Source: Escherichia coli
GTDB lineage: Bacteria > Pseudomonadota > Gammaproteobacteria > Enterobacterales > Enterobacteriaceae
Assembly: GCF_003018235.1 (NCBI RefSeq)
Contig: NZ_CP027437.1
Length of the DNA stretch: 64,000 bases
Direction: 5' to 3' (one strand)
Position numbers and translations under genes: made by a program. Shown here in pieces: positions 911 through 32,726 of this stretch (within the stretch, counting starts at the first letter, position 1; every line of letters starts with the position of its first letter). The notes under the pieces were generated by a model. The model was not told the origin of the DNA. It saw only the letters and a program-made list of their open reading frames with translations, and searched no databases.

Positions 911-1267
911 TCATTTTTTTTCAAGCAACTCCTCATAAAGCCACATAACTAACCATTTACTATTTCTTGAATGTTCTAACATATAATGTCCAGACAAATA
1001 TTTAACAAATTCGCCATCATGAAGAGAAATATTTTTATTCATACTGTCAGAAATTATATTCAGAGTCCCTGACTGTACAAAAATATATCCCGTCATCATT
1101 GTTGTAGGTAAAGACAGCGCAGTTTTGTGAATTTTACTAACAATTCTTGAATTATTTACATTTAAACCAACTGTTAATCTAACATTATCTTCAGTGAGAG
1201 GGATGTCAAAATAATCTGACCACTTATAGATATGAAAGTCACTTAAATTTAGAAAAAACTCTCTCAT
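911..1267 (-). CDS. Putative Rhs immunity protein (RhsI), 118 aa
   Basis: AT-rich ORF beginning at an ATG (1265-1267) 19 nt downstream of the rhs stop. The tool's 157-aa version overlaps the rhs 3' end, so I trimmed it to MREFF. Position and composition are typical of rhs immunity genes. No family was recognised. Confidence 0.6.
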   Translation of the reverse strand: MREFFLNLSDFHIYKWSDYFDIPLTEDNVRLTVGLNVNNSRIVSKIHKTALSLPTTMMTGYIFVQSGTLNIISDSMNKNISLHDGEFVKYLSGHYMLEHSRNSKWLVMWLYEELLEKK

Positions 1268-1286
1268 ATTATTCTCATATAAAAGC

Positions 1287-4200
1287 TTAAGGAAAAATAA
1301 CCCCGTATTCTTCAAACGCAGCTCTAGCCGCTGCTTCAGATGCAGCGTTCTGAGTTCCAGTATTTCCGAAATGATAATGACCACTGTGAGGGGCTATATC
1401 AGTACCGAATCGTCCATTCACAACAGTAGCCTCTCCCGCCGCAAGAACTGGTTTTCCATTTGCAATTGCAGCATGAGAAATTTCTATCCCATCTTGCATT
1501 TTTGGTGCAGTTAATAGAGTGCCATCCTCAAGAAGGACATACTTTATATCGCCAGCTTCATCAGCCATATCTGCAAAACGTGGGTCTGATGGTTTCATCG
1601 GTTCAACACCGGCCTCTCTCATTGCAGCCAATTCCTCATCTAAATGTTCCGGTAATTGATTTTTAAACGGGCACCCAATAAAACCCCACGGATCACACCA
1701 GCCCACCGGGTCATGCACATACGACTGCGTGTTCATCCCGCCGCTCAGTTTCAGCGGGTCCTGGCTTAAATACTGCCCCGTTCCGGCATCGTAGTAGCGG
1801 TGTAAATTATACCACAGCCCGCTCTCCTCATCCCGCCACTGGCCCATGAAGCCCGCATCACAGCTTTCACGCTCACTGTCCGGCGAGTCGTTTGCTGCCG
1901 GAAGTCCCCACAGGCTGCGGTGTTTCGTCCACACCTTCTGGCCGTTCGCGCTGTACATCTCCTGTGGTGCGCCGTCCGGGCCGGTCACTATCGGGTAAAA
2001 ATGGCTCCGGTCATCATTCGCCGCCCGGCTTTCCTTTGCCAGCAGTTCAAACCCGTCACGGTAATGCCACTGTTCCCGTAGCGCCGGGCTGCCGTCTGCG
2101 TAGCACTTCTCACTGATGGAAAGCGCCATGCCCTGCCACTGGTAGCGCATTTCACTGATGGCGTGGCCTTGCTGCTTCCATGCAGCACGGATAACGCAGC
2201 GTTTTGCGGTTCTCCGGCCAAAGGCGTCGTAGCTGTACTGCCATACCTCACCGTCTGGTGTCTTTATCTCGCGCAGACGGTCAAAATCGTCCCAGCGGTA
2301 GCGCCACTCCTGTGGGCGAAAGCCGCGTTTTTGTTCTGTGCGCTTTGTCACCCTGCCGCAGGCGTCGTATTCGTAGCGGCTGTCGCCCGCCTGAGTCACA
2401 CATTCACGGCTGTACTGGTGCTGCGACAGAATGCCGTTTATCCGGCTTTCCGCTATCTGCTCGTTTACCGTATAGCGGTAGCGTTCTTCCTGCGCCGGGC
2501 CACCGGCGTCCAGCCGCAGTACGCTGGTTATCTGGTCGCGGGCATCGTACTGGTAGCGCGTTTCCCGCTCCGTGCGCGTTTTCGACCACACTTCATGCCC
2601 GGTCAGGCGGCCCGATTTATCCCACGCGTAGCGGTGTTCGCCCAGCGGTCGCCACGACGCCACGCTCTGGTGACCGCCAGCCAGCCGCTCTGCGCCCTGT
2701 TTTTGCCATGCCGTACGCCCGCAGGCGTCATATCCCTGCTCCTGCATATACACCGCATGGTTCAGCGGCGTCTGTGCCAGCCAGCTTTCCTCATTCTCCG
2801 GGCGGTAACGTCTGCTTTTTTCCAGCCCGGCGGGGGAATGACCGAAGTCCATCCGGTGGCCGTTGCTGCGGTAGCCCATGAGAATGCCCGAAGCATCGTA
2901 TTCTCTCTGTGTTTCCCCGTCCGGCGTTGTGGTGCCCGCCAGCCGTCCGGCTTCGTCGTAACGGTACTCCGTGCGCTGGCCATCCTGCTCTTCCGCCACC
3001 AGGCGATGACGTTCGTCCCACTCCAGTTTTACCTCGCTGGTCAGCGTGTAACCTGCTTCACTGGCATCACTGCGCTCATACACCTGCGCGCTCACCATCC
3101 GGTCATAATGGTCGTACTGATAACAGAGTTGCTGATGCTCGCCGCTGATGGTCGTCACCCGGCCATAGCCATCCCGCGCATAGCGCCATACGCTACCGTC
3201 CGGGCGGTGTTTTTCTGCCAGTCGGCCCTGTTCATCACGGATATAGACGGTTCTGCGTCCGGACCAGTCATCCTCCCCGGCCATCTGGCCCGCTGCATCA
3301 TAGTGCAGCCGCCACTGCTGGTTGCCGCTGCGCGTAAGCTGCGTCAGCCTTGCGGCACCGTCGTAGTTGCAGAGTATCCGCTGCCCGCCCGCGTCTTCCA
3401 CTTCCCGCAGCAGGTCAAATGCCCCGTGGCGGTAGCGCGTGGCCTGCCCCATGGCCCCGGTGTGGAGGGCGATTTTGCCTTCACCGTCATAGCGGAAGGT
3501 TTCCACGCCGCCATCGGCCCGGATAACCGCACTCAGTTTCTCATGCGGGTTATCAGCACCGGGGCGGTACTGCCAGTTCATGCTGCGCCCTTCCGCATCC
3601 ACCAGCCCCGTCAGCCGCAGCCAGCGGTCTTCCGTGTAATGGGTCGTGCGGCCTTCAGCATCCGTATGGGAAAGCAGGCCACCGTGGGCGCTGTAGCCCC
3701 ACTGTTCGTGGCTGCCGTCCGGGTATGTCACTTCCTTCAGCAGACCGTCTTCGGTATGACGGTACTGCCATTTTTGCCCGTTCACTTCCCGCCGGATAAG
3801 GTTCCCTTCGGCGTTATAGCTATAAGCTGCCGTGGTGTGATGGTCACGGTAGGCCGTTACCTGGCCGAACTCATCCCGCTGCCATTCACGCTTGCGCCCG
3901 TTCTCGTCCGTTTCGCTCAGGATACGCCCGGCGTAGTCGCGTTTTATCTGTGTGATACGCCCGCCCGGCTGGCGGATACACAGCGGCTGGTCGTATTCGT
4001 TACGCTCCCATTCAGTGATACGCCCCAGCGGGTCACGCTGTTTTTTCAGCAGCCAGGATTCATCGAACCACAGCGTGGTGGTGGCTCCGGTGGCGTCGGT
4101 ATAATCGGTTCTGCGCTCATCAGGGAAGTAGCGGAAGGTGTCGTTATACAGGCCTTCCTGTGTGCCTGTGGCAGTCACCCGGCCTTCATCGTCATAGCGC

Positions 4201-5813
4201 AGGTGGAAGTGCGTCGGGCCATTGTCGCGCCAGGAACTCAGCCAGCCCTGTTCGGTATAGGTATAGTGCAATGCACCATTAAAGCGGGTCTGTACATCAC
4301 GCAGCCGCTGCTCATCGCCGTGGCTGATATAGTCGTAACGCACCAGCTCGCTGCCGTCTGACTCGTCGGTCACACGGAATATCTGCCCCTGCGGGCCACA
4401 CCTCACCCGCAGACTCAGGCCGCTACTGTGGGTTACGTTTGTCAGGTGGCCGATGGCGTTATAGGTGAAGCGAATTTCGTTGCGGTTGCGGTCTTTTATT
4501 ACTGTTAGCCGCAGACGACGTGCGCCGGGGGAGATGGGCGTAAAGATATAACCCAGTTGTGAGTATTCGTCGAAAATAATAGCCCGCTCACGGTTTCCCA
4601 GGAGGCGATAGTGCGGGACAAGCAGGTTACGGCTACTGTATGGTGCCTGCTCCGTGGAGTAGGCCGGACATAGCCCCTCAGCATCAAAGTAGGTGACGTT
4701 TTTCCCGTTGCTATCGAACTCCAGAAACTGCGACCAGTTACACAACCAGCGACTGCCCAGCAAACCACTAACCGGATGTCGGCCTGTATAAGCACGTTTC
4801 AGCGTCAGCGGTAAAATATGCGAATAGTTGAAATCAGTTCGGTAATCCAGATATTCACCCGTTCCGGTATCCACCGGATCGCTGAACCCCTGACTGATAC
4901 GCTCATTGGCGGCTCTGTTTAACTGCTTTGCTCCCCATAGAGCTGTTAACACCTCCAGACTTGATACAACAGATTGTTCCAGTACCGTCATATCTGCATT
5001 AATCGGCCCATACTGTCCGGTTGTCTTATCAGCCGTGATGGTTTTACATCCTTCCTGAATAACTGCCGAGCAGGTAATTTTATGGCCCTTACGCGCCAGC
5101 GGCAGGCTGTTGACGGAAATAATTTTGCTCCCTTCCACTATCTGCGGAGGAGGACTGCCCGGATCCTTACTACATTCAACCGGATCAGTGACGCGAGCTA
5201 CCGCTTTTCCTTCAAAAAAAACATTAGGTGAGCCTTCTACAATCTGCCCGGTTTCAGATGCCCAGCGGGAACCAATTACCATCGCTGCACCACCGACAAA
5301 TCCACCAGCTAATCCCCCGGCCCCGGCAGCAACGGTGGCAGCAAGCACACCCAATGCGGCGCCCCCTGTAGCGACAACCAGAGCCCCCACTGCAATCCCT
5401 ACGATAAGTCCACCGATTAACCCACCAATAGCACCCAGAAAGGAATTGTTATGAACAATGTGATGACCCACACACGCCGGTATATCTGTTGGGCCGGAAA
5501 CAGCGTGATCTTTACCCCAGGTATCCATGAACCAGTCACCTGCTTTGGTGCCCAGCCATCCCCCCAGCATCCCGCCAGCCAGTCCGGCAATCAAAGGGCC
5601 TCCAAATCCTGCAACAGCTTTGGCTATTCCGGCTGCACAGGTATTTGCTGCGGCGGCTGCCAGTCCCACCTTTGCCGTTGCTCCCACCATGCTGACAGCC
5701 ATTATTCCAGTACTGGCAATATGTCCTGTGGTAGCAATACTCTCCACTGTTTCGGCATTACTGTCCCGTTGGTCCAGCTCCGCTAACTTCTCCTGCGCGC
5801 TTTTTTCCGTCAT
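1287..5813 (-). CDS. rhs: Rhs-family T6SS effector, 1508 aa. Layout: N-terminal hydrophobic Gly/Ala segments, a split PAAR domain, the YD-repeat shell, then a variable C-terminal toxin.
   Basis: Many YD repeats (YDxxGR-type). PAAR-like motifs GKAVARVTD and LPLARKGH. Core-end motif YVHDPVGWCDPWG, followed by a roughly 130-aa divergent tail. SD GGAAGGA lies upstream of the ATG at 5813. Sits directly downstream of a DUF1795/Eag gene. Confidence 0.92.
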   Translation of the reverse strand: MTEKSAQEKLAELDQRDSNAETVESIATTGHIASTGIMAVSMVGATAKVGLAAAAANTCAAGIAKAVAGFGGPLIAGLAGGMLGGWLGTKAGDWFMDTWGKDHAVSGPTDIPACVGHHIVHNNSFLGAIGGLIGGLIVGIAVGALVVATGGAALGVLAATVAAGAGGLAGGFVGGAAMVIGSRWASETGQIVEGSPNVFFEGKAVARVTDPVECSKDPGSPPPQIVEGSKIISVNSLPLARKGHKITCSAVIQEGCKTITADKTTGQYGPINADMTVLEQSVVSSLEVLTALWGAKQLNRAANERISQGFSDPVDTGTGEYLDYRTDFNYSHILPLTLKRAYTGRHPVSGLLGSRWLCNWSQFLEFDSNGKNVTYFDAEGLCPAYSTEQAPYSSRNLLVPHYRLLGNRERAIIFDEYSQLGYIFTPISPGARRLRLTVIKDRNRNEIRFTYNAIGHLTNVTHSSGLSLRVRCGPQGQIFRVTDESDGSELVRYDYISHGDEQRLRDVQTRFNGALHYTYTEQGWLSSWRDNGPTHFHLRYDDEGRVTATGTQEGLYNDTFRYFPDERRTDYTDATGATTTLWFDESWLLKKQRDPLGRITEWERNEYDQPLCIRQPGGRITQIKRDYAGRILSETDENGRKREWQRDEFGQVTAYRDHHTTAAYSYNAEGNLIRREVNGQKWQYRHTEDGLLKEVTYPDGSHEQWGYSAHGGLLSHTDAEGRTTHYTEDRWLRLTGLVDAEGRSMNWQYRPGADNPHEKLSAVIRADGGVETFRYDGEGKIALHTGAMGQATRYRHGAFDLLREVEDAGGQRILCNYDGAARLTQLTRSGNQQWRLHYDAAGQMAGEDDWSGRRTVYIRDEQGRLAEKHRPDGSVWRYARDGYGRVTTISGEHQQLCYQYDHYDRMVSAQVYERSDASEAGYTLTSEVKLEWDERHRLVAEEQDGQRTEYRYDEAGRLAGTTTPDGETQREYDASGILMGYRSNGHRMDFGHSPAGLEKSRRYRPENEESWLAQTPLNHAVYMQEQGYDACGRTAWQKQGAERLAGGHQSVASWRPLGEHRYAWDKSGRLTGHEVWSKTRTERETRYQYDARDQITSVLRLDAGGPAQEERYRYTVNEQIAESRINGILSQHQYSRECVTQAGDSRYEYDACGRVTKRTEQKRGFRPQEWRYRWDDFDRLREIKTPDGEVWQYSYDAFGRRTAKRCVIRAAWKQQGHAISEMRYQWQGMALSISEKCYADGSPALREQWHYRDGFELLAKESRAANDDRSHFYPIVTGPDGAPQEMYSANGQKVWTKHRSLWGLPAANDSPDSERESCDAGFMGQWRDEESGLWYNLHRYYDAGTGQYLSQDPLKLSGGMNTQSYVHDPVGWCDPWGFIGCPFKNQLPEHLDEELAAMREAGVEPMKPSDPRFADMADEAGDIKYVLLEDGTLLTAPKMQDGIEISHAAIANGKPVLAAGEATVVNGRFGTDIAPHSGHYHFGNTGTQNAASEAAARAAFEEYGVIFP

Positions 5814-5843
5814 CTGTTCGTCCTTCCCGCTGAACTGGCTGGG

Positions 5844-6275
5844 TTATTTATCCTGCGGCATTCCAAAACAAAAATTCAATAATGCTCCCCGCATCGCTTT
5901 ACGATCCTCCTCTGCCAGCGCCTGTGTTGAGGAATAGGTCAGCGTCAGTACTTGTCGCTCGTTCAGAATTACCAGCAGCAACTGCTGTATCATCACCCCC
6001 TTGTTATCCCAGCTAAATTCCCAGTATTCCGCCGGGCGCTCCTGTACATGACAGCGTTCTTCGACGGTGAACACCATTTTCGACAGTTCGGTACGGAATT
6101 TCTTTTTCTGCACCGCCAGATAGTCATCAAACTGCGCACCATCCGGCAATATTTCACGGGTAACAACAACATTAGCCCCGGCAATCGCACTTAATACCGG
6201 TGTCAGAATATTCATACTGCTGTCCTGCCAGTTTCCTGGCAGGGTGAAATGTCCTTCATTAATTAGATATTGCAT
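5844..6275 (-). CDS. eagR: Eag-family (DUF1795) T6SS effector chaperone, 143 aa
   Basis: N-terminus MQYLINEGHFTLPGNWQDSSMNIL is typical of DUF1795. Located between vgrG and a PAAR-Rhs gene with TM segments, as for EagR/SciW in SPI-6. Confidence 0.8.
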   Translation of the reverse strand: MQYLINEGHFTLPGNWQDSSMNILTPVLSAIAGANVVVTREILPDGAQFDDYLAVQKKKFRTELSKMVFTVEERCHVQERPAEYWEFSWDNKGVMIQQLLLVILNERQVLTLTYSSTQALAEEDRKAMRGALLNFCFGMPQDK

Positions 6276-6480: not shown

Positions 6481-6930
6481 CTAATGGTTTCTCAAAAAAA
6501 TCTTTGCGTAATTAGGATTATTTAACTCTAAGTTCACCACATTAGATTTAAAATTATAAAAATCCGCATCTCTATCATCCTCTGTAACCTTTGAATCAAC
6601 CGTCGACCACACATTCGTATAAAAACTACACTCATGCTTTCCTGGCGTAATATGGTAATCTCTGGCAATTTGTACATAGTCCCCCACCTTCATTTCTCCG
6701 GGAGAGATTTTGTAATATTCCCCTTGTCCAAGGTTGTACATTACACCTGAATAACGAATCTTCTTGCCATCACATTCAACACTCAATTGATCGGAGCTCG
6801 GATATTTACCTTGAGATATGTACCTGACATCTATATATAATGGAATTTCACCATTATTTTTAACACGTACAGCAACATAAACGTCATCTTCTTTGGGTAT
6901 AACATCCACAATAACCATGTAACATGGCAT
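6481..6930 (-). CDS. Hypothetical beta-rich protein. Candidate immunity or inhibitor for the VgrG C-terminal metallopeptidase (149 aa from the ATG at 6930).
   Basis: AT-rich ORF starting 17 nt after the vgrG stop. No signal peptide or lipobox is visible. The start is ambiguous (ATG at 6930 or 6918; the tool's upstream start overlaps vgrG). Confidence 0.45.
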   Translation of the reverse strand: MPCYMVIVDVIPKEDDVYVAVRVKNNGEIPLYIDVRYISQGKYPSSDQLSVECDGKKIRYSGVMYNLGQGEYYKISPGEMKVGDYVQIARDYHITPGKHECSFYTNVWSTVDSKVTEDDRDADFYNFKSNVVNLELNNPNYAKIFLRNH

Positions 6931-6946
6931 CCATAAATTAAGCCTT

Positions 6947-9784
6947 TTATTCAAAATAACGTTCAAAGTTATAAGCACTTTGTAATGAGGCCCGCTTACC
7001 CTTTTTAGCTAGATCTATACCACCACTTCTTAAACCCTCATCAAAACTTCCGAGCACATCATAAAAATGTGACATTTCATGAATCAAAGTTATGACTTGT
7101 GAATCACGACCGTCCAGGGGATCGTCAATAAATTTATTTCCAAGATAAATGGTATGGGTATAATCTCCATCATTAACTCTTCCATGAACATTAACATCCA
7201 TAAATTCAAAATTTTGGTACTTAATCCCCTCATTAATTTCAATTTCTTTTTTTACAGCGTTTAAAATTTTATTCCTGGCTGCCTCATCATCAACACCGAA
7301 TATATTTCCAAAACGCTCTTTATCGTTATCATTCCAACGAATCAACTCATCTCTTGCTGATTTTAATTTTTTACGCTGCGCTTCAAGAACAAGTTTCATA
7401 TCATTTTCACTGATCCTTTTCTCCTCTATCATTTCATAAACAGGATTTCCATAATTATCTGTAAGAGGTTTTCCATTATATCCAATTATAGCTACTCCAT
7501 TACCCGGCCCTGATGTAGAAAAATCTCTAATTGTATTAATTTTATATTTACCATTTGCGTCACTACCGCCAGGATTCAGTGCCAAGTGAGTAGGTCCATC
7601 AAGGATGATAGTGCCGTCTGAATTCATCACGAGAGTGCTGCTTCCCACAGTCAACGTAATGTTCGTTGCCGCAGTCAAATGAATGGCACCAGATTTTGAT
7701 GTGATGGTAATATCCCCTTCGACAGTCTCCGTGCAGGTTCCCGTTTCTACCGTCACTTCGCGTTTACCCGTTTTCACCGTCAGAGACTGGTCACCTTCTG
7801 TCACAGTAATATCCCGGTTGCCTTTGATGGTTTCGGTGTGCTTACCCTCAACAAATTCTGTGCGATCGATTTTTACCGTAGATGTTTCGTTATGAATGAT
7901 GGTTTTCGTCCGATCTGCCTTTACCGTGTGTGTTTCGTTATTTTTCACGACGGTATTCAGATCTTTCTCCGCAAGAAACCTCACTTCTTCCGCACCTGTT
8001 TTATCGTCAAAGCGCAGCATGTTTCCGTTGGTCGGCCCGCCATACAGCGAGTGGCTGAATATCCCGCTCTGCGACGCCATGCCCGGCAATCCCCACGGCG
8101 GCATGGTGTCCTGGTTATAGGTGCGCCCTACAATGATCGGTAAATCCGGGTCGCCGTTTTTGAAATCCACCAGCACTTCCTGGCCGATGCGCGGGATCTG
8201 GATCATCCCGAATCCTTTCCCCGCCCACGGGTAGCTGACGCGGATCCAGCAGGAGCTGTTTTCGTCATTCTTTCCGTAACGGTCCCAGCCAAACTGGACC
8301 TTCACCCGGCCATATTTATCCGTCCAGATTTCCTGCCCCGCAGGGCCGGTGACGATGGCGCTCTGCGGGCCTTTGGTGTGGGGTTTGCTCAGGGTTCGCT
8401 GTGGGCGGTAAACTTCGCTGGTGGGATGCAGTTCAAACGTGGTGACATAGGTAAAATGCTGCTCCTGACCGCTGTGCTGCGCATTATCCCGTAAAAACAG
8501 CGTGGTCTGTACCAGTAGGTATTCCTGGTTGACCTCTGCCGTTGGATGATTCATCAGCGTAAAGGTGTAACCCGTCATGAGGGTGCGGATATGACCTGCC
8601 CCATGTGCCCGGCTGCCGGGGCTGCGCTGCGCTTCCATACGAATGCGCGTCAGCATCTCGCCTTCGCCCGTAGTGAAGTAATCACCAGGCCATTCATAAT
8701 GCTCGTATTCAGCATGACCGGTATCACGCGGACTAGCCACGGTACTTTTAAGCAGCGAACGAGGCTTCATAAAATCAAAATCGTCCATCACCCACTTTCC
8801 AGTACGTAGCCTCTCACTGGCCGTAATGGTGTGGATAAATTCCTTGTCCAGTTTCAGACCTTCCTGGTGCCACTCCACCAGTGGCGAGTCAGGGCACGCT
8901 TTATGACCATTGATGGCATCCGCCAGCACCAGCGTATGGCTGTTCTCGCTGTGCTCAAACCACCAGTAAATTCCCCACTCCTGCATCAGGCGCTGGATGA
9001 AATCAAAATCCGTTTCACCGTACTGTACCTGCCAGGCACGAGGTGGATAATTTTCCACCAGCCGTTTTTCCACCGGAAAGGAATATTCATCCAGTACTTC
9101 ATCGAGAATATCCACCACGGTTTTATTCTGGAACGCCTTGTAGTCGCTGGTATGGGTCAGCAGCTTCAGCCATGGCTCAATGCGTAATTCATACGTTACC
9201 GAACGGCCCTCATGGCCGACCACCCGCGCTGCCGTCACCAGCCCGCTGATATACCGTTTTTCGCCACCGTCCAGTTCAATACTGACGCACAGGTCTTTGC
9301 CCACCATGGGCTGAAGCGGCAGGTTGGCAGCGGGAGAAACGTAACCCAGGTTCAGGATGTCCGGCGTTTTAAGCTGTACTGTGTAGGAAAACAGATTCCC
9401 AAGTCCTTCCGAACCATTCATGCCTGCAAACAAAAGCAACTGCGGCGGCACCGCGCTACCACTTACTGTGACGTTATGCGCCCCCGGACCACCGGCTGCA
9501 AGCGACGACGCCGCATCCTGAACTGTACCAGCCATATCCGAGATCCCTACTGCAGCAGCGGCAGCCTGCGCAGCAGTTACTGCAGCTTTAACCAGACCTG
9601 ACGGTTCCGGCAACGCACCAAACAGGTCCGCCGCGGCCTGTTCTGCCATCTCCTCGGCGGCACCAGATACATCGGTTACGGCTGAACTGGCGCTTACAGC
9701 ACTACTTTCTCCGGCTATCGGTGGCGTGGAGATAGCTGGCCCACCGTTACTGCCAGATTTATTACTCGTAGATACAAAACTCAT
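6947..9784 (-). CDS. vgrG: Evolved VgrG spike protein, 945 aa. It has an Ala/Ser-rich N-terminal extension and a C-terminal aspzincin-like (M35-like) zinc metallopeptidase domain.
   Basis: gp27/gp5-like core ([12 protein letters not shown]..., beta-helix repeats [25 protein letters not shown]...). The last roughly 207 aa are AT-rich and contain TLIHEMSHF (HExxH at nt 7067-7081). An Asp lies 9 residues after the second His (GSFDEGL), which is the aspzincin spacing. SD AAGGAA lies before the ATG at 9784. Confidence 0.9.
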
Positions 9785-10911: not shown

Positions 10912-10943
10912 GATCACCTCCTTATATTGCTATATATCCAATA

Positions 10944-16501: not shown

Positions 16502-16502
16502 A

Positions 16503-19619: not shown

Positions 19620-19622
19620 AAT

Positions 19623-23241: not shown

Positions 23242-23265
23242 GAAAGTTCCTTAATAAAATCGCAG

Positions 23266-24165: not shown

Positions 24166-24729
24166 TTAATGTCCATCAATTGACCAGTGAGGTATATCTG
24201 TATTGCCGCCAACAAATTTTCTGACGCCGTAACCCAGACCTACCGCCTGAAGCTGGGCATTCATTCCGGTTCGAGGTAGTGTATTAATTGCAACATTCTG
24301 ACCATTGCTCCCCGCAATTGTTAATGTTCCGCTCCAACTGATATTCATATCTATCGCAGTACCGCGTGTATGGTTGGAGCTCAGTGCAGGCGCGACATTC
24401 AGATTATTCATACCATAGGCCGTAACCATAGCCTGCGCCGCTTCAAGCGAGGCTTGCTCAGTCGGGTGAACCCACTCAATATCCATCCCCTCCATCGCCG
24501 GGACGTTTTTTGCCTGAACGATTTCATGAGCAATCAACCATGACCAGTGCATGAGATATGCTCTGGCGGGAGGGCGATATGTTGCAGAGATACTGACCCT
24601 TGCACGCGCATTACCAAGCGCGCGCAAAAAATTATCTACCGATGCACGAAAAGTCCCCTGCAAATCATTAGTGGAAGAACTTCCAGGAAAGCGACTGACC
24701 CACAGTGCGCCACTTAATTCTTTTGCCAT
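24166..24729 (-). CDS. Putative T6SS effector: LAS/M15-type (VanY-like) zinc peptidoglycan peptidase, 187 aa
   Basis: SxHxxGxAxD motif SNHTRGTAID at nt 24349-24378 (H-x6-D zinc ligands), plus a distal DIPHW His. No signal peptide. Sits 12 nt downstream of clpV, inside the T6SS operon. Confidence 0.65.
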   Translation of the reverse strand: MAKELSGALWVSRFPGSSSTNDLQGTFRASVDNFLRALGNARARVSISATYRPPARAYLMHWSWLIAHEIVQAKNVPAMEGMDIEWVHPTEQASLEAAQAMVTAYGMNNLNVAPALSSNHTRGTAIDMNISWSGTLTIAGSNGQNVAINTLPRTGMNAQLQAVGLGYGVRKFVGGNTDIPHWSIDGH

Positions 24730-24741: not shown

Positions 24742-26223
24742 TTAATCCGTTTCAAAAATAATCTGTTCATCCTCATCAACACGAATGCGGATTTGCGTGA
24801 TGGCCGTTTTCTCTGTCATCGCCTGCAACCAATAACGGGACAGTTGTGGGAGGATATGTTGTTCGATATAGCCGATGAGCAAACGAGCGCCGGTTTCGTG
24901 CATCGGGCAGCGCGACACAATATGCGTAATCAGTTCATCGCCATACACCAGTGAAACGCCATGCTGCTCCGCCATCCGATCCATCAATCTGCCAAGATGC
25001 AGGCGGGCAATAACACCACGCGCGGTCTCATCCAGCGGTAAATAAGGAATAACCGTCACACGCCCCAGGAAAGCCGCCGGGAAGTGTTTACGTAACTCCG
25101 GCATTAACGCCTCTTTTAGTCCTGCCGAATCAGGCATCAGCGCCGGATCCTTTTCGATATGGCGTTTGTACTCGCTCCAAGTGGTTGCGCCGATGGTGCG
25201 CAGGGTGCCACGCGCCAGCGCCGGTTTCAGCAGGTTGGCAGCATCCCCCGTACCGGATGTACCACCAGCGCCCACCAGCGTGTGAACTTCATCAACAAAA
25301 AGGATTACCGGCTGCGGCGAGCGCGCGGCCTCTTCTAGCAACGCTTTCAGGCGGGATTCAAATTCACCCTTCATGGACGCCCCAGCCAGCAGCGCTCCAA
25401 CATCCAGTGACAGCAACCGCACGTTACGCAGTGAAGGCGGTACTTCCCCCCCGGCAATCGCCAGCGCGAATCCTTCCACCACTGCCGTTTTCCCGACTCC
25501 CGCTTCGCCGGTCAGTAGCGGGTTGTTCTGGCGACGGCGCAGCAGAATATCCGTCATAGTACGGATCTCGTGTTCGCGACCGGTGACCGGATCGATATTG
25601 CCTTCACGGGCCAGCGCAGTCATGTCCTGGCAGTATTTCGCCAGCGCGGATTTGCTTCCGGTTGATTCGCCGGCAAAGACCTGGCTAGCTTCCCCCGGTA
25701 CTGCAGAATTTAAATCCGAGCCGTCATAAGGCATTTCTGTTAATTCAGGAGATGAAGTGATTAAAGACGGAAGAATATCTAATAGTTCATCTACCGGTAG
25801 CTCTGCCAATGGCGCACAAATATTTTTTAACACCCGACACAATTCTGGCGTGGTTAACCAGGCAAGTAATAACCATCCACTACGAATTTTTTTATCGCCA
25901 AAGCGGATACTTGCCAACATCCAGGCTTTTTCAACAGAAAGATCGATATGATGGGAAAAATCGTTAATTACACTCGCTCCGGCAGGCAATATATTCAATT
26001 GCTGAATTAACGCCTTCTCAACATCAGCAGATGTTATTTGATAATGTCGAAGCACATTGTGAATGTCATTCTCTGGTTGTTGTATTAACTGATGCAACCA
26101 ATGCGTCAGTTCGACATAAGGATTAGCGCGTAATTTACAGAACGTCGTCGCAGATTCCAAAGATCTAAACAAAGATTTGGTTAGCTTTCCATACAGTGCA
26201 CTGCGCGAAACAGGAGTGTCCAT
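24742..26223 (-). CDS. clpV: ClpV AAA+ sheath-recycling ATPase carrying an apparent large in-frame internal deletion (493 aa instead of roughly 850-900)
   Basis: ClpV N-domain, then D1 Walker A GEAGVGKT and Walker B ILFVDEVH. At ...IEKDPAL|[26 protein letters not shown]... (junction about nt 25135-25145) the sequence jumps into the C-terminal small domain. There is no second Walker A. Confidence 0.8.
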
Positions 26224-26555: not shown

Positions 26556-27470
26556 ATGAAACCAAATATTACGTGGGGACTCCAAAAAATACAGGCGCAC
26601 GGGATCGCCGATAACACAATTTACGCGACTGAAGGAACCCAAATTATCTTCACCGTTACCTCACCCTGGATTCCTGTTTTTGAGGTGAATGATGATGTAA
26701 AGATTGCCCTCAGTCTGACCCGCCACGAAGAAGCATGGTGGATTATCAATCAGTCTACCGAATATTGCTGTACGGTAAACGACCAGATTGTGGAACCTCA
26801 TCACCGTATGCGTCTGAATGAAGGCGATCTGATAGAATGGGGGTTATCTTCATGGTGCCTTGTGCACGGCAATCCATCATCTCCGGACCTGAGCGCAGTA
26901 AATACGACATCGCAGACTGCCACCATGTCGGAAACAATAACCGAATATCTGGATCTGGATTGGTTCAGGCAGCAGCATCTGACATCACAAAATCCATTCG
27001 ATATCATTCCTGTTCATGGAGCCTCCTCCACTGGAGAAGATGCTAAAAAAGAAAATGCCCTGACTCGACTTTATCAGGAATACCGCGAGGCGTTGTTATC
27101 TCCTGAACAAGATCTTCATCGCCATGCTGATCCTTTTCCCTTTAACGAAGAGCCCTCCTCACAGGATCTGGATTCATTGCGTGATCTGGTCACTGAAGCC
27201 GAGACATTGCAGGATATGGTCACTGGCGGGTTAAGCATTGACGCTATTCTCGATGTCCTGGACGCCACCGGCGAAGGGGAAACCGCCTGGCCTGCCGAAA
27301 AGACGCCCCCAGATATCCTGCACCTGCTATCCCCGGAATGCGCACCGGAAACAGCGCATAACACCGTTCTACCCGACCTGACACGCAAAGAGCATCGCAT
27401 CATTGGCATTGACAGCCATTATCGGATAAACCCGGCACAACACGGAGAGATATCTCATGACAAACAATAA
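26556..27470 (+). CDS. tagH: TagH-like protein with a degenerate N-terminal FHA-like domain, 304 aa
   Basis: First gene of the + operon. The segment CTVNDQIVEPHHRMRLNEGDLIEWG resembles the FHA core. The C-terminal half is acidic and low-complexity. Confidence 0.5.
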   Translation: MKPNITWGLQKIQAHGIADNTIYATEGTQIIFTVTSPWIPVFEVNDDVKIALSLTRHEEAWWIINQSTEYCCTVNDQIVEPHHRMRLNEGDLIEWGLSSWCLVHGNPSSPDLSAVNTTSQTATMSETITEYLDLDWFRQQHLTSQNPFDIIPVHGASSTGEDAKKENALTRLYQEYREALLSPEQDLHRHADPFPFNEEPSSQDLDSLRDLVTEAETLQDMVTGGLSIDAILDVLDATGEGETAWPAEKTPPDILHLLSPECAPETAHNTVLPDLTRKEHRIIGIDSHYRINPAQHGEISHDKQ

Positions 27471-28287
27471 CGAGCTACCGGCTACCCTGTCGGCGCTGCT
27501 GCGGGATTATTCCGTGGCGGAGGGCATTCAAATGGCAGAGCAGCAGGTCAGGATGCACCCGGCGCAGGCCTCCCGCCGCCACAGCTTATTTCAGTTATTG
27601 TGCGTGGCAGGCTACTGGTCGCGGGCACTGCAACAGATCCAGCTATGCGCCCGGATGGACGCAAATTATACCCGCGAAGCGCAGGTATTTGGCGAGCTGA
27701 TACGCTGTGAGATATACCGCCACGCCTGCTTTCAGGGAGAACAGCGGCCCGATTTTATTCTCCCGCCGCCCGCCTGGATGGAGGATCTGCTGACCGCCCT
27801 CGCCTGTAACGCTCGTGGTGAAGCGCAGGAAGCTGACGCCCACCGCAGCCGCGCACTTGAGGCCATAACAGATACTGCAGGGCAGTGGAATGGCGGCGCA
27901 TTTGACTGGATTAGCGACAGCGACTCCCGTACCGGTCCGGTACTCGAACTCATCGCGGGCGGAGTATATATCTGGCTGCCGTTTTCACAAATCTGTTCGC
28001 TAAAATCGCCGCGGCCTGCGCATCTGACCGATTTGATCTGGAAACCCGTCAACGTCACACTGAATAATGGCGACACACACAGTGCCTGGCTGTTTTCCCG
28101 CTACAGCGGCTCTGAAAAGGCTGCCGACTCCCTGCGTCTGTGCCGGGAAACGGTCTGGCAGGACGGGCCGGGAGAGACTCTGGTACAGGCGCTGGGTCAG
28201 AGGGTGTGGCTCACCGGTCACGGCGATATCAGCCTGCTGGATTTGTCCACCTGTACCTTTAACACCGCTGAAGGAAGCGACGCGTGA
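27457..28287 (+). CDS. tagJ: TagJ (ImpE/SciE family) T6SS accessory protein, 276 aa
   Basis: TPR-like N-terminal part and an ImpE-like C-terminal part (WISDSDSRTGPVLE...YIWLPF). Position before tssE. Confidence 0.7.
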   Translation: MTNNNELPATLSALLRDYSVAEGIQMAEQQVRMHPAQASRRHSLFQLLCVAGYWSRALQQIQLCARMDANYTREAQVFGELIRCEIYRHACFQGEQRPDFILPPPAWMEDLLTALACNARGEAQEADAHRSRALEAITDTAGQWNGGAFDWISDSDSRTGPVLELIAGGVYIWLPFSQICSLKSPRPAHLTDLIWKPVNVTLNNGDTHSAWLFSRYSGSEKAADSLRLCRETVWQDGPGETLVQALGQRVWLTGHGDISLLDLSTCTFNTAEGSDA

Positions 28288-28778
28288 GCGCTTCCCGCCA
28301 GCGTCCGGGCAATCACCTGCTGCCCACGCTGTTTGACCGCCTGTGTGATGATGCCCCAAACCAGAAACGCGACCACGATATCAGCGTCAGCCCGGTTCAG
28401 CTTAAGGAGATCATTCGCCGGGATTTGTCATTTCTGCTCAACACCGTCAGCCATGAAGATGATATTGATGCTGCACGTTATCCGGACGCGGCAGCGTCCG
28501 TACTGAACTACGGCCTGCCGCCACTGGCGGGCAGCTTTCTGTATGAACACAAGTGGGACGATATTCGCAGGGCCATTTTGCGTACCATCATCCGGTTTGA
28601 ACCCCGGCTGAAAGCGTCCACCCTGCAAATCATCCCACTTCAGGATGAGCGCCACCAGAGCGGCCATAACACATTACAGTTTGAAATTCGCGGCGAGATC
28701 CTCACGCAGCCCTACCCGATGGCATTCCGGGTACGCAGCGCGCTGGATATGGAACAGAGCCGCATTACGTTTTTTTAA
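28284..28778 (+). CDS. tssE: TssE (gp25-like) baseplate protein, 164 aa
   Basis: LLPTLFDRL...L...SV..DL..LLNT motifs. GTGA overlap with tagJ. Confidence 0.9.
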   Translation: MSASRQRPGNHLLPTLFDRLCDDAPNQKRDHDISVSPVQLKEIIRRDLSFLLNTVSHEDDIDAARYPDAAASVLNYGLPPLAGSFLYEHKWDDIRRAILRTIIRFEPRLKASTLQIIPLQDERHQSGHNTLQFEIRGEILTQPYPMAFRVRSALDMEQSRITFF

Positions 28779-28793
28779 TTCAGAGAGAAACCG

Positions 28794-30677
28794 ATGGATC
28801 CACGGCTACTGGAATACTACAACCGCGAACTGAGCTATCTGCGGGAAACGGGAGCCGAATTTGCCGCCCGTCATCCTAAAGTCGCCGCCCGACTGGGTAT
28901 GCAGGGAACGGATATTGCCGATCCGTATGTGGAGCGAATGGTCGAGGCCTTCAGCTTCCTGACCGCCCGCACGCAGCTAAAAATTGACGCTGAATTCCCC
29001 CGTTTCACCCAGCGTCTGCTGGAAGTGGTCAGCCCCAATTACGTCACACCCACGCCCTCAATGAGCGTGGCGCAGCTTCATCCCGATCCGGAAGAAGGCG
29101 ATCTGGCGAAGGGATTCACCGTCCCGCGCAACACGGCCTTTTTTTCCGCCATTCCGGAAGGCGAAAGTACCGCCTGCCAGTTTCGTAGCAGCCAGAATGT
29201 GACGCTGTGGCCACTTGCCATCGAAGAGGTGCGGCTGACCGCCGCGCCGCCGGATATGCCTGCCCTGCACCGCTACCTGCCAGCCAACATTCACGTCGCT
29301 GGTGCGCTGCGTATTACCCTGCGCACCTTTGGTGAACTGACGTTCAGTCAGCTTGCAGGGCTGAACAAGCTGCCATTTTATCTCTGCGGCGAGGAGCGCA
29401 CGGCCTCACACCTGTTCGAACTACTGCATACCAGCGCCATCGCGAGCCTGGCTGGCATTCCGGGGCATTTTGACGGCGCACTGGATGTGAATCTGAAACA
29501 GCCCGTTATGTACGAAGGCCTGGATCCGGATCAGGGACTGTTGCCGCTGGCGTGGAATGTGTTTCACGGCCATAACCTGCTACATGAATATTTTACCTGT
29601 CCGGAACGCTTCTTTTTTTTCACCCCGACAGGCCTGTCTGCCGGGTTACAGAAAATTAACGGCGGCGTGGCGGAGATTGTTATCCTGCTGAACCGCCTGC
29701 CGCCGGACTGGCTGATCCACCAGACAAACGCGGCACAGTTCAGCCTGTTCTGTACCCCAGTTATCAACCTGTTTCCCCGCGTCGCCGCCCGGATCGATGT
29801 CACGCACAGCACGACGGAACAGCATCTGGTGGTGGACAGAACCCATCCGCTGGATTATGAGGTGTTCTCGGTCCAGGAAGTGGAAGGGCTGGAAACTGAC
29901 ACCACACGGAAGATGGCCTTTCGCCCGCTCTACCACACCCGCAATAATGATGAAGGCAATCACGGACGTTATTTTTCCCTGCGCCGGGAGCCGCGCCGGT
30001 TGTCGGAAAATGCCCGCCGCTATGGCACCCGCACCTCCTATACAGGATCAGAAGTGTTCCTGTCGCTGGTTGACCAGTATGAAGCGCCGTACCCGGAAAA
30101 TCTGCGCCATATCACCATCACGGCTATGGTCACCAACCGCGATCTGCCCTGTCTTATTGCCCGCAATGGACGGGACGATCTGACCGTGGATGCGGCCATC
30201 CCGGTGGCGGGCGTGGGGCTTATCCGTCCGCCGCGTCCGCCGCAGCCTCCGCTGGCTGAACGTGAAATGGCCTGGCGGTTGATCCGCCAGTTATCCTTTA
30301 ACTATCTGCCGCTGGCCGATCTGGATCACCGTACCGGTGGTCAGGCGCTGCGCGATCTGCTTAACCTGTTTATTCCGGCGCATGACAGTCCGCAGTCGCG
30401 CCAGGTGCGCAGCCTGATTGGCTGCAACACCACCCCGGTCACCCGCCGTCTGCCCGGTTCCGGGCTGCTGGTCTATGGGCGCGGCGTCAGTTGTGAACTG
30501 ACCGTGGATGAGGAGGGGTTCTCCGGTATCAGTCCGTATCTGTTCGGTCTGGTGTTGGAGCACTATATCGCCCGTCATGTTTCCATTAATACCTTCTCGC
30601 AGATGACGCTGCACAGCATGCAGCGCGGCAAAATTATGACCTGGCCTGCCAGGGCGGGACAGCGGGGAAGCGTATGA
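28794..30677 (+). CDS. tssF: TssF baseplate protein, 627 aa
   Basis: N-terminus MDPRLLEYYNRELSYLRETGAEFAARHPKVA is canonical TssF. Confidence 0.95.
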   Translation: MDPRLLEYYNRELSYLRETGAEFAARHPKVAARLGMQGTDIADPYVERMVEAFSFLTARTQLKIDAEFPRFTQRLLEVVSPNYVTPTPSMSVAQLHPDPEEGDLAKGFTVPRNTAFFSAIPEGESTACQFRSSQNVTLWPLAIEEVRLTAAPPDMPALHRYLPANIHVAGALRITLRTFGELTFSQLAGLNKLPFYLCGEERTASHLFELLHTSAIASLAGIPGHFDGALDVNLKQPVMYEGLDPDQGLLPLAWNVFHGHNLLHEYFTCPERFFFFTPTGLSAGLQKINGGVAEIVILLNRLPPDWLIHQTNAAQFSLFCTPVINLFPRVAARIDVTHSTTEQHLVVDRTHPLDYEVFSVQEVEGLETDTTRKMAFRPLYHTRNNDEGNHGRYFSLRREPRRLSENARRYGTRTSYTGSEVFLSLVDQYEAPYPENLRHITITAMVTNRDLPCLIARNGRDDLTVDAAIPVAGVGLIRPPRPPQPPLAEREMAWRLIRQLSFNYLPLADLDHRTGGQALRDLLNLFIPAHDSPQSRQVRSLIGCNTTPVTRRLPGSGLLVYGRGVSCELTVDEEGFSGISPYLFGLVLEHYIARHVSINTFSQMTLHSMQRGKIMTWPARAGQRGSV

Positions 30678-31669
30678 GCGACGATTTCACTCAGGCGCAG
30701 GAAACCCCCTGGCGTTACGGTTTTCTGAACCTGATGCGCCGCGTGGATGTGCAGTTGTGTACCGTTCCGGCAGGCAACACCTGGCAACCACGGATGGAAA
30801 AATTTCGCCTCGGACAAACTCCCGCGCTGACCTTTGCGCCACGGGAAATCGCCAGTGTGAGCTGGCAGGAAGAGCGGCTGCACATCAGTTTGTACAGTCT
30901 CGGGCTGTGGGGGCCGAACGGTCCACTGCCGCTGCACTACACCGAACTGGCGCGCAACCGGACTGAAAGCCGAAGAGACCCGACGCTAACCCGTTTTTCT
31001 GATCTTTTTCATCACCGCTGGCTGACGCAGTTTTACCAGGCATGGCGCAGCGCCCAGTCCGCTGGGGGCGGTCTGGATAAACCACAACATGACCGTTTTG
31101 CCTTTTATATCGCCAGCCTCAGCGGGCAGGATTTGCGGGAGAGCGCCGACAGCCCGTTGCCGGATCACGCTCGCCTGGCGGCATCGGCCCATCTGGTGCG
31201 TGAGTCCCGCAATCCGGACGGTCTGGCCACCACGCTGGCGCACTATTTCGGTGTACCTTTCCGGATACAGGAGTATGTCCTGCACTGGATAGCCGTGGCG
31301 GACGATGAGATCACCCGGCTGGGGATGCCAGCCCCCTCTTCCGTTATTGGCAACGGTGCACTCATCGGCCAGGCCGTGCCGGACATGCAGTATAAGTTCC
31401 GGCTGGTTATCGGCCCGCTGACGCTGGAGGATTACCGACGTTTTCTGCCTGGCGGCAATAACCTGCCAGTCCTGACAGAACTGGTCCGCGCCTTTAGCGG
31501 TTTTGAATACTGCTGGGAAATTGAGCTACAGCTAAAGCCCCACGCCGCCCCTCCGGCTGTTACCGGTGGTTCGTACCAACTGGGCTGGACCGCATGGGCG
31601 GGTAAAGCCATGCACGAAAACCCGGTGACGGGCATGATTTTCGAACCAGAACACTACCTGGCGCACTGA
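30674..31669 (+). CDS. tssG: TssG baseplate protein, 331 aa
   Basis: ATGA overlap with tssF. Conserved RYGFLNLMRR and QxPALTFAP motifs. Confidence 0.93.
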   Translation: MSDDFTQAQETPWRYGFLNLMRRVDVQLCTVPAGNTWQPRMEKFRLGQTPALTFAPREIASVSWQEERLHISLYSLGLWGPNGPLPLHYTELARNRTESRRDPTLTRFSDLFHHRWLTQFYQAWRSAQSAGGGLDKPQHDRFAFYIASLSGQDLRESADSPLPDHARLAASAHLVRESRNPDGLATTLAHYFGVPFRIQEYVLHWIAVADDEITRLGMPAPSSVIGNGALIGQAVPDMQYKFRLVIGPLTLEDYRRFLPGGNNLPVLTELVRAFSGFEYCWEIELQLKPHAAPPAVTGGSYQLGWTAWAGKAMHENPVTGMIFEPEHYLAH

Positions 31670-31679
31670 GGATAATTTA

Positions 31680-32726
31680 ATGGATACATCCCTGTCTGAC
31701 CCAATTTCGGCAGAATGCCCCTGCGGCCCGGATCTGGAGTACGATCCGGAATACCTGCTACTGTTCACGCGCGCCGCACCGCGTGAAGAAGCGCAATACG
31801 GCGATTTTGTCAGTACGCCGGAAACCATTAACTGGGCGGAGCTTGAGCGGGATGCCTGCCGACTGCTGACGCGCAGCAAAGATATCCGCATTCTGGTTGT
31901 CCTGCTGCGCTGCCGTATCCAGCAGGCCGGTGCCAGGGGACTGGCGGAGGCGCTCGCGCTGCTGGAAACGTTGTGCGCCACGTACCCGAACGCCATCCAT
32001 CCTCAACTGCTCGCGACTGAAGATATCACCGCCGAAGAGGCGGCAGTGGCACGTAGTAACGCCCTGGCGGCATTGCTGGACCATGAAGGCGTAATAGCGG
32101 ATATTCGTGGCATTACACTGTCAAACAATGCTGCCATACGCCTTCAGGTACGGGATGTGGAGCGTTCGCTGTCTGCATCACGCCCGGCGGATGCGCTGGC
32201 ACCAGAATCGGTACGCCAGCAACTGGCCGACCTGGAGGCGCGCGGCACACTGCCGCTGGATGCCTTTCGCCAGGCCGCAGAGACCACTGAGCGGCTGCAA
32301 CGCCATGCGCTTGAAACGCTGAATGACCAGGCACCGAACCTATCCCGTCTGACACAATTGCTGGCCCTGTTGCCGGGAGCGATACGGACCACCACGCCGG
32401 AGATCCTGCCACAACCAGTGGCTGAACAGCCGGAGAGCACCACCATCGTTCATACTGAAGAGATATCATCAGAGCAGATTGCGCTACCGGTGCATATCGC
32501 GGAGGAAATATCACCGATGTCCGGCGCAGAACCCCGGCAGATCCGCGACCGGAACGACGCGCTGGAACGCCTGCGTGTCATCCGTCGCTGGTTTGAGCAC
32601 AGCGAACCGAGCAGCCCGACCATTCCTTTGCTGCGCCAGGCAGAACGCCTGGTCGGAAAACGCTTCTCGGAGGTAATAAATGAAATTCCAGTAGAACTGC
32701 TGGAAAAATGGGATGCGCTGGAGTAA
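31680..32726 (+). CDS. tssA: TssA (short, ImpA_N-containing) protein, 348 aa
   Basis: ImpA_N signature CGPDLEYDPEYLLL. Conserved C-terminal EPSSPTIPLLRQAERLVGKRFSEV. Confidence 0.85.
   Translation: MDTSLSDPISAECPCGPDLEYDPEYLLLFTRAAPREEAQYGDFVSTPETINWAELERDACRLLTRSKDIRILVVLLRCRIQQAGARGLAEALALLETLCATYPNAIHPQLLATEDITAEEAAVARSNALAALLDHEGVIADIRGITLSNNAAIRLQVRDVERSLSASRPADALAPESVRQQLADLEARGTLPLDAFRQAAETTERLQRHALETLNDQAPNLSRLTQLLALLPGAIRTTTPEILPQPVAEQPESTTIVHTEEISSEQIALPVHIAEEISPMSGAEPRQIRDRNDALERLRVIRRWFEHSEPSSPTIPLLRQAERLVGKRFSEVINEIPVELLEKWDALE

Follow-up and report, generated by a model that had tools for sequence, protein, structure and literature searches.

A 64,000-nt stretch of Escherichia coli DNA (contig NZ_CP027437.1), called the window below, was analysed for a type VI secretion system (T6SS) island that it carries beside the tRNA-Asp gene aspV. 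We consider it highly probable that this is an aspV-linked island of the Salmonella pathogenicity island 6 (SPI-6) type with six effector/immunity pairs, four directed at the cell wall and two at the cytoplasm, and with a crippled ClpV. As a T6SS locus of the SPI-6 type the island is ordinary, and the claim that its toxins are redundant adds little. What it offers is a well-annotated way into two families of zinc-peptidase effectors that are uncharacterised and have conserved, periplasm-located immunity partners. A broader reading has, in our judgement, an even chance of being right: the M15-like and the metzincin-like proteins of the island would represent two widespread, biochemically uncharacterised T6SS effector families, the former delivered in three formats and the latter being the first metzincin-type T6SS toxin, which may cut a new bond or a wall-anchored protein. 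If this is true, LysM, PG_binding or OmpA modules would hold the metzincin-like toxin at the peptidoglycan in some family members.

On sequence grounds, the region is the E. coli counterpart of SPI-6, because it occupies the aspV site, carries the accessory genes for TagF, TagK, TagJ and an OmpA-extended TssL, and encodes Tae4 and Tai4 proteins near-identical to those of Salmonella. Pfam scans of every sizeable open reading frame (ORF) in the window found a complete T6SS core set. The closest reference, E. coli MEI003, was 99.6% identical and colinear, with the gene order kept. At the right-hand boundary, tRNA-Asp (Table 1) is followed by dnaQ and rnhA (Pfam; MEI003 annotation), and positions 33000-45000, right of the region, matched essentially every E. 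coli chromosome at 95-99%. The flanks matched E. coli at 99%. Positions 6000-26500 found some match in 572 of 5426 complete E. coli genomes and were covered to at least 80% in 104 of these 5426. On the left side the window begins inside an orphan Rhs fragment (1-874), so the island extends leftward beyond the window; it is therefore longer than the 32 kb first given for it and includes at least part of a seventh toxin module.

In the mechanism that we propose, low-GC effector/immunity cassettes would have been inserted into fixed slots between core genes. Four small leaderless cargo enzymes (Tae4, Tlde1, an M15/LAS-fold peptidase and a metzincin-like peptidase) would be carried in the Hcp lumen and act in the periplasm of the target cell, and the producing cell would be protected from each by an immunity protein that is secreted or lipid-anchored. 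Two further toxins, a VgrG aspzincin domain and the 136-aa tip of an Eag-loaded PAAR-Rhs protein, would be built into the spike and act in the cytoplasm. In the window strain half of ClpV is lost, and the arsenal would be fired poorly or not at all. The G+C content (GC) of the cassettes was 0.29-0.45 compared to 0.49-0.65 in the adjoining core genes, as expected of swapped-in modules.

The M15-like effector had no above-threshold match in Pfam or NCBIfam. It scored 14.7 bits against a cut-off of 25 for Peptidase_M15_4 and 14.3 against 176 for the NCBIfam D-Ala-D-Ala dipeptidase model. Since the M15 model scores all lay below cut-off, the effector represents a separate family, without a model of its own, inside clan MD. 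The AlphaFold model was confident, with a predicted local distance difference test score (pLDDT) of 96.5, and in a fold-level check it had the Hedgehog / DD-peptidase fold. The stretch SNHTRGTAID matches the VanY-type SxHxxGxAxD signature, and DxxH comes later. The zinc triad of the M15/LAS peptidases, His-x6-Asp with a distal His, is present with its Asp/Glu-x-x-His (H120, D127, D178, H181), and these four residues together with R52 were invariant in 40 aligned homologues. Searches of the PDB by phmmer with this protein and with the metzincin-like HELGH protein returned noise only.

A database search found 304 relatives of the M15-like effector. In the broader reading given above, the family spans dozens of proteobacterial genera and would be delivered in three formats: free cargo, cargo docked on an ~80-aa PAAR/VgrG module, and direct fusion to PAAR. 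When the context was surveyed in 80 loci, one genome per species, a PAAR-like ORF abutted the gene upstream in 34, an immunity homologue lay downstream in 40, and T6SS core genes were found within 10 kb in 11; as T6SS markers in distant loci were detected with E. coli queries alone, these association counts are lower bounds. This context of PAAR neighbours and immunity homologues argues for a T6SS toxin rather than a housekeeping enzyme. In Ralstonia and Herbaspirillum the M15-like gene comes directly after a PAAR gene, and Pectobacterium has a matching 186-aa and 96-aa pair as an orphan locus. The partner protein in the window, which bears a Sec leader, shares 48% and 27% identity with the products of the ORFs that follow the Pectobacterium and Herbaspirillum homologues, respectively.

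Single-frame fusions were also seen. In a Rhodanobacter lineage, PAAR and the M15-like domain share one frame; elsewhere the domain is joined to an SLT lytic transglycosylase (the cyanobacterium Pannus) or to a pesticin-type lysozyme (a planctomycete). The fusion frames are at L035 5032-6075, L047 9557-10564, L061 9035-10549 and L062 9092-10555. Proteins about 46-47% identical to the M15-like effector, with Sec signal peptides, occur in Paenibacillus and Singulisphaera (L081, L086, L088), and neither an immunity homologue nor a T6SS gene was found near these loci; they look like a secreted, non-T6SS branch of the family. The SLT and pesticin fusions, the relatives with Sec leaders and the secreted partner protein support a cell-wall substrate, and we infer that the effector cuts a stem peptide or a cross-link of peptidoglycan.

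The metzincin-like effector likewise had no above-threshold match in Pfam or NCBIfam. Close relatives formed five clusters in a word-indexed protein search, which alone was insufficient for the wider family; an exhaustive profile search of representatives gave 307 members with the motif HE(F/L)GHxIG ... (G)DEY ... D ... (L/I)MN.G..LR.R. In the fold-level check the protein had the metzincin catalytic-domain fold, and its structural neighbours were all protein-cleaving metzincins. The metzincin motif HExxHxxGxxH is incomplete: the window sequence is HELGHIIGYLADEY, with Ala at the third-ligand position, followed by the near-invariant D190-E191-Y192. By alignment only, M212, a candidate for the Met-turn residue below the active site, is almost invariant within (A/S)(L/I)MN. 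Judging from its model, the protein would work like a metzincin yet miss one defining feature, the third His.

The partner of the metzincin-like effector has a strongly hydrophobic N-terminus, MKLIYAVVIFLIVGGA. Its homologues lie directly downstream of the effector in loci L005 and L006, where they are 56-74% identical, and in 41 of 80 metagenome loci found with a sub-alignment of the family. Of 16 homologues inspected, 13 had a signal peptide, and several had a lipobox-like Cys. In L006, a related enterobacterial island, the HELGH gene stands between tagF and vgrG amid Tge2-like, DUF2195 and Tlde1-like cassettes. The segments 5386-7777 and 9397-10766 of that locus hold a 220-aa ORF of unknown nature, a glucosaminidase-like gene with Tgi2PP, two genes for DUF2195 proteins and one for a Tlde1-like protein, and the tagF-vgrG slot looks like a hot spot of cassette exchange. 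Some family members carry N-terminal LysM, PG_binding_1 or OmpA modules. Fusion partners thus tie both peptidase families to peptidoglycan, and the metzincin-like effector is predicted to act on peptidoglycan or on a peptidoglycan-bound protein.

The two other cargo modules belong to established families. Tae4 scored 77.4 bits with Pfam PF14113 (gathering cut-off 27) and matched the S. Typhimurium Tae4 structure 4J30 with an E-value (E) of 6.5e-94; 4J30, 4HFF and 4JUR all matched at full length with E ~7e-94. Cys44 and His126, which we take from family knowledge to be the catalytic residues, are present. The immunity protein Tai4 scored 70.3 bits with PF16695 (cut-off 27.1) and matched PDB 4HFF_B with E 7.5e-49. 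Tlde1 scored 48.9 bits with Tlde1_dom against a gathering score of 30.1. It has the YkuD-type His ... Ser-x-Gly-Cys motif, HG-x12-SDGC, as HGESSAHPGEASDGC at residues 85-99, and no solved relative was found for it by sequence in the PDB. Its partner starts with MFKVIICLLAGIPAISYA-QN, a Sec leader; it corresponds to a 444-nt coding sequence (CDS) in the MEI003 annotation and matched no family model in Pfam or NCBIfam. The pair fits one described in an SPI-6 survey, a 122-aa Tlde1-like effector with a 147-aa secreted partner (PMC10469887).

The spike-borne toxins are of two kinds. The predicted aspzincin domain of VgrG (~6950-7330) has HEMSH at residue 902. Aspzincin_M35 (PF14521), whose cut-off is 30, scored 28.5 bits when the whole VgrG was scanned and 30.5 with the C-terminal 217 aa alone, and the tip matched AsaP1 (2X3A, E 1.6e-4) and GfMEP (1G12, E 0.016) in the PDB. 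HEMSH is followed by GSFDEGL, whose Asp aligns with that of AsaP1 while the Thr and Tyr of GTxDxxYG are replaced. The GC of the C-terminal part was 0.34 compared to 0.54 in the VgrG core. The tip was found in 3 of the 5426 complete E. coli genomes and in strain 64A:C, and it formed one cluster only in the word-indexed search. The C-terminus of a VgrG on the Cronobacter plasmid pESA3 is 47.6% identical to it. The ORF downstream of the Cronobacter VgrG and the partner in the window are 26% identical (E 5.8e-5), and both are leaderless.

The PAAR-Rhs locus unites the parts of an Eag-chaperoned polymorphic toxin: a PAAR domain, RHS repeats, a DPxGW core end, a variable tip, a downstream partner gene and an upstream DUF1795 gene. 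The core ends with DPVGW at residue 1368, and positions 1287-1697 encode the 136-aa C-terminal toxin, with a GC of 0.45 compared to 0.58 in the core. Neither the toxin nor its 118-aa partner had a match in Pfam, NCBIfam or the PDB, where the matches covered the Rhs core end only. The partner gene, first drawn as 911-1384, is corrected to 911-1267 after MEI003. The order vgrG-eag-rhs is repeated in L006 and L010. As the partners of both spike-borne toxins are leaderless, the Rhs and the VgrG-aspzincin toxins probably act in the cytoplasm; for Rhs, an Eag-chaperoned hydrophobic N-terminal region and a leaderless partner fit cytoplasmic delivery. The toxin tip of the orphan Rhs lies beyond the left window edge, which places the seventh module partly outside, and the equivalent in MEI003 is annotated as an RHS repeat protein. 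In MEI003 additional Rhs fragments, small ORFs and an ISAs1 transposase come next in this region, which makes further toxin tips probable just past the edge of the window.

These results confirm the observation made in the initial annotation of this DNA and support its interpretation in part. Each of the six toxin modules that it listed was found intact, in or close to the position it had assigned. Its names for Tae4 and Tlde1 are backed by Pfam scores above cut-off, those for the aspzincin VgrG and the Rhs module by the matches described above, and the two peptidases, recognised from motifs alone, were upheld at the fold level. These two, which it gave as inferred, are not new observations, as candidates for both had already been listed for SPI-6 (PMC10469887). 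Four partners had been credited with signal peptides: the ORFs at 16058, 20821 and 23873 do have canonical Sec leaders, and for the one at 9809 the hydrophobic segment stands but its cleavage site is unclear. The ORFs at 6481 and 911 have no leader, as proposed. Its three distinct zinc-peptidase folds were an overstatement; there are two fold classes and three families, because metzincin and aspzincin belong to one zincin clan.

How the four cargo enzymes are loaded was considered from the genes present. As the initial annotation had remarked for the free peptidases, no DUF4123, DUF2169 or Tap-like ORF was found in the Pfam scans of the sizeable ORFs of the window. An ~80-aa C-terminal module ending in CSC is common to the PAAR proteins (Ralstonia, Herbaspirillum) and VgrG proteins (Pseudomonas) encoded directly upstream of M15-like effectors, and is a candidate cargo-docking domain; its carriers are L003 5457-6053, L004 5415-6008 and L033 7687-9990. 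The M15 relatives encoded after such PAAR or VgrG genes carry an N-terminal Thr/Pro-rich extension that the window protein does not have. That the window encodes this module was rejected, with tblastn E above 0.5. Because both the spike-docking module and the Thr/Pro-rich extension are absent from the window, Hcp, present in one copy, would be the likeliest carrier of the four cargo enzymes. The alternative spike-loading formats of the M15-like family make both the bond cut and the choice between Hcp and spike as carrier testable.

The clpV gene has lost 1152 nt in frame relative to the MEI003 alignment, with the 15-nt direct repeat TCAGCGCCGGATCCT at both breakpoints, where it encodes KDPAL and EDPAL. 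The protein thereby lacks the last part of D1, the middle domain and the nucleotide-binding motifs of D2, and Pfam shows one AAA region and a D2-small domain only in what remains. The junction was found in none of the 5426 complete E. coli genomes and also not in strain 64A:C. Because this in-frame deletion removes half of ClpV, the arsenal of the strain probably fires poorly or not at all. The effector genes of the window strain are intact. In MEI003 the aspzincin VgrG is annotated as truncated (L001 9609-11786) and the partner of the HELGH protein as frameshifted (11811-12183), both being pseudogenes, and clpV is intact, a decay pattern opposite to that of the window strain. The island of E. 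coli 64A:C (NZ_CP134663.1, gull cloaca) is 99.4% identical to the window, with an intact clpV and an extra Rhs copy; it lies on a 4.9-Mb replicon filed as a plasmid. Such a private clpV deletion means that an intact-looking arsenal need not be deployable.

The positions of the features are listed in Table 1. The toxin genes had been described as a single operon, and they are better called a co-directional array. A strong terminator-like hairpin (20212-20188, minus strand; 10 base pairs including 7 G-C, then a run of T) stands directly 3' of hcp, which suggests that hcp is transcriptionally separate from tssJKL. A promoter and terminator scan of the window performed no better than on shuffles, and operons were not defined by it. 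Gaps of ~200-330 nt without coding sequence lie beside low-GC cassettes (15731-16057, 10918-11102 and 6276-6480) and may be recombination scars or internal promoters.

Table 1. Features of the T6SS island and its boundary in the window.
Feature	Position	Strand	Evidence and remarks
Orphan Rhs core fragment	1..874	-	RHS core ending DPLKLSGG...VHDPV; 93% identical to main Rhs core
Candidate Rhs C-terminal toxin immunity protein, 118 aa	911..1267	-	357-nt CDS in MEI003; no hydrophobic N-terminus; GC 0.29
PAAR-Rhs polymorphic toxin	1287..5813	-	Pfam PAAR_motif, DUF6531, RHS_repeat; Rhs_assc_core
Eag-type chaperone (DcrB/DUF1795) for Rhs N-terminal region	5844..6275	-	Pfam DcrB 94.2 bits
Candidate partner/immunity protein of VgrG aspzincin	6481..6978	-	Leaderless; start probably internal ATG, ~149 aa; GC 0.36
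VgrG with C-terminal aspzincin (M35) domain	6947..9784	-	Pfam Phage_GPD, Phage_base_V, Gp5_trimer_C, Aspzincin_M35
Predicted immunity protein of metzincin-like effector, 123 aa	9809..10180	-	N-terminus hydrophobic (leader or anchor)
Metzincin-like zinc metallopeptidase cargo effector	10177..10917	-	244 aa from ATG 10911; HELGH at residue 179
TagF, TssM	11103..15730	-	Pfam
Tldi1-type immunity candidate, 147 aa from ATG 16501	16058..16513	-	Sec signal peptide
Tlde1-family L,D-transpeptidase-like effector, 122 aa	16503..16871	-	Pfam Tlde1_dom
TssL (OmpA-extended), TssK, TssJ	16963..20195	-	Pfam
Hcp	20224..20709	-	Pfam T6SS_HCP 138.7 bits; sole Hcp in island; candidate carrier for small cargo effectors
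Tai4 immunity protein	20821..21204	-	Pfam Tai4; Sec signal peptide; start probably ATG 21192
Tae4 peptidoglycan amidase effector	21189..21674	-	Pfam Tae4; PDB 4J30, 4HFF, 4JUR
TssC, TssB sheath	21727..23811	-	Pfam
Predicted immunity protein of M15-like effector, 96 aa, two conserved Cys	23873..24163	-	Sec leader MTFRYPMLLTFLLMMFAFCVQG
M15/LAS-fold zinc peptidase cargo effector, 187 aa, without leader	24166..24729	-	
ClpV/TssH with in-frame internal deletion	24742..26223	-	493 aa instead of 877 aa; junction ~25137-25151
Divergent unit TagK, TagJ, TssE, TssF, TssG, TssA	26556..32726	+	Pfam; MEI003 annotation
tRNA-Asp (aspV)	32858..32934	-	ARAGORN; right-hand island boundary

Several points weigh against this interpretation of the effectors. 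The M15-like and HELGH proteins score under every Pfam M15 and metzincin threshold. The HELGH effector is without the third zinc-binding His, its model is weak (pLDDT ~52) at the presumed substitute ligand D190/E191, and the leader of its partner has no clear cleavage site. Loading into Hcp is proposed by analogy only, with other small T6SS effectors, a ClpV-deleted T6SS may retain residual activity in some species, and the sole ground for a cytoplasmic target of the aspzincin in the window is the absence of leaders in two homologous partners. Moreover, VgrG2b, a metallopeptidase that has been characterised, has its site of action in the periplasm (PMC6899460). The metzincin-like effector could be a true protease that cleaves proteins of the envelope, for example lipoproteins bound to peptidoglycan or enzymes of the periplasm, and not a peptidoglycan peptidase. 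We regard this as possible but somewhat doubtful: its structural neighbours without exception cleave proteins, LysM, PG_binding_1 and OmpA modules could equally park a protease at the wall, and the substrate of VgrG2b is likewise thought to be a protein, whereas the Salmonella relative is listed, by domain alone, as a putative peptidoglycan hydrolase (PMC10469887). It is unlikely that the aspzincin domain is a fifth envelope-directed toxin, as assumed where the initial annotation counted "four or five". VgrG2b of P. aeruginosa and the M35 protein of E. coli PAR are periplasm-acting, VgrG-linked metallopeptidases (PMC6899460, PMC10673891), but the VgrG2b immunity protein PA0261 must be exported to protect and requires its leader (PMC6899460), while the downstream ORF in the window and its Cronobacter homologue have no signal peptide. 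Furthermore, the solved C-terminal domain of VgrG2b was not among the PDB sequence matches of the tip at E up to 10, and the Aspzincin_M35 T6SS effector T6EC12 is toxic in the cytoplasm, the periplasm and yeast (bioRxiv 10.64898/2026.09.28.754971). The leaderless partners, the export need of PA0261 and the cytoplasmic toxicity of T6EC12 are why the module is counted as probably cytoplasm-acting; four envelope modules are favoured, and a fifth is unlikely because the partner and its Cronobacter homologue are leaderless. A TagX-like role for the M15-like protein, as an accessory hydrolase that opens the producer's own peptidoglycan for T6SS assembly, is very improbable. Acinetobacter TagX is a VanY-like L,D-endopeptidase needed for T6SS biogenesis (PMC5061870), and the M15-like gene, flanked by the core genes clpV and tssB, is kept in sister islands. 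Yet the protein has no membrane anchor, hydrophobic segment or leader, it always has a small secreted protein as its partner even far from T6SS core genes, in Rhodanobacter it forms a fusion with PAAR, in 34 of 80 species PAAR or VgrG genes precede it, and Salmonella SPI-6 retains a mere 32-aa remnant (PMC10469887), so it is evidently dispensable there. The TagX-like reading was therefore rejected on the leaderless and anchorless protein, the conserved secreted partner and the PAAR links.

For the island with four wall-directed cargo toxins, two cytoplasmic toxins and a crippled ClpV, two doubts concern the strain. That the clpV deletion is an assembly artefact and not a real allele is rather improbable. 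Its junction lies in a 15-nt repeat between two homologous AAA+ halves, where assemblers may collapse, and was seen in no other genome; but the repeat is far below sequencing-read length, the deletion is exactly in frame, and the flanks are otherwise colinear at 99.5%. It is very improbable that the stacking of anti-wall toxins is exceptional and peculiar to this strain, although six intact modules stand within about 33 kb and the aspzincin tip is as rare as stated above. The four cargo cassettes are common to ~100 E. coli genomes with the island. E. coli JNE120442 holds M15-like, Tae2-like, Tlde1, extra Tae4, HELGH and Rhs genes in matching slots, five of its modules being wall-directed, and L006 stacks Tge2-like, HELGH and Tlde1-like cassettes. 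SPI-6 surveys show a like pattern and report stacks of effectors aimed at peptidoglycan as enriched in VR1-VR2 (PMC10469887; also PMC11669294, PMC12994826). Several stacked wall-directed effectors are thus the normal state of the island lineage. The arsenal had been called "unusually redundant", which does not hold, since sister E. coli islands, such as that of JNE120442, and SPI-6 carry equivalent loads, and 104 of 5426 E. coli genomes cover at least 80% of positions 6000-26500.

The effectors were then compared with known systems. The M15-like effector shares the SxHxxGxAxD and DxxH signature of the M15/LAS peptidases (VanY, VanX, LdcB, the phage L-Ala-D-Glu endolysins Ply500/T5 and Serratia ChiX), and its Sec-leader and lysozyme-fused relatives imply an extracytoplasmic substrate like theirs. 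In contrast to them, it is ~12-17% identical and below all Pfam M15 cut-offs, is leaderless with a dedicated secreted immunity protein, and belongs to a family linked to PAAR/VgrG genes. M15-like domains occur in other T6SS effector classes too (PMC12135965). Acinetobacter TagX is also VanY-like and also encoded within a T6SS cluster (PMC5061870), but it has a membrane anchor, lacks an immunity partner and works in assembly, whereas the window protein is leaderless, has an immunity partner and has relatives fused to PAAR. Like the C-terminal domain of VgrG2b and the M35-PAR protein of E. coli PAR, the aspzincin tip is a predicted zinc metallopeptidase toxin that the VgrG spike carries or constitutes, with a candidate immunity gene after it (PMC6899460, PMC10673891). 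No pairwise sequence similarity to these was detected, the window domain scores with the canonical aspzincins (AsaP1, GfMEP), at the edge of the Pfam cut-off, and its partner is without the signal peptide that PA0261 needs. T6EC12 is likewise a T6SS-linked Aspzincin_M35 protein with HExxH and a downstream Asp, and it is toxic outside the periplasm as well; it is a free methanotroph cargo predicted to ride in Hcp, whereas the window domain is fused to VgrG, and immunity proteins are reportedly unrelated between members of that family.

The in silico candidates for SPI-6 already include the Reprolysin_4 protein SESEF3709_03438 (243 aa) in VR2, with a secreted partner, and a remnant of a ChiX-like L-Ala-D-Glu endopeptidase between tssH and tssB (PMC10469887). 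SESEF3709_03438, an in silico candidate only, can be set beside the HELGH protein by description and not by measured identity: the two are equal in size, have the weak Reprolysin-type Pfam signal seen across the HELGH family, occupy a slot downstream of tssM/tagF and have a partner with a signal peptide. They differ in that the window protein has HELGHIIGY...DEY and not the M12B motif HExxHxxGxxH. As for the whole island, Salmonella enterica SPI-6, with its variable regions VR1-VR3, shares the tRNA-Asp insertion site, the accessory TagF, TagK, TagJ and long TssL, and Tae4/Tai4, for which the E. coli proteins are near-identical to those of S. Typhimurium. In both, Tlde1 adjoins tssM, a vgrG-eag-rhs module stands at the end and the cassettes occupy the same slots (PMC10469887). 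The present island differs in its host, E. coli, in the full-length 187-aa M15-like gene of the tssH-tssB slot, where Salmonella reportedly has a 32-aa remnant, in the aspzincin tip of its VgrG and in the internal deletion of clpV.

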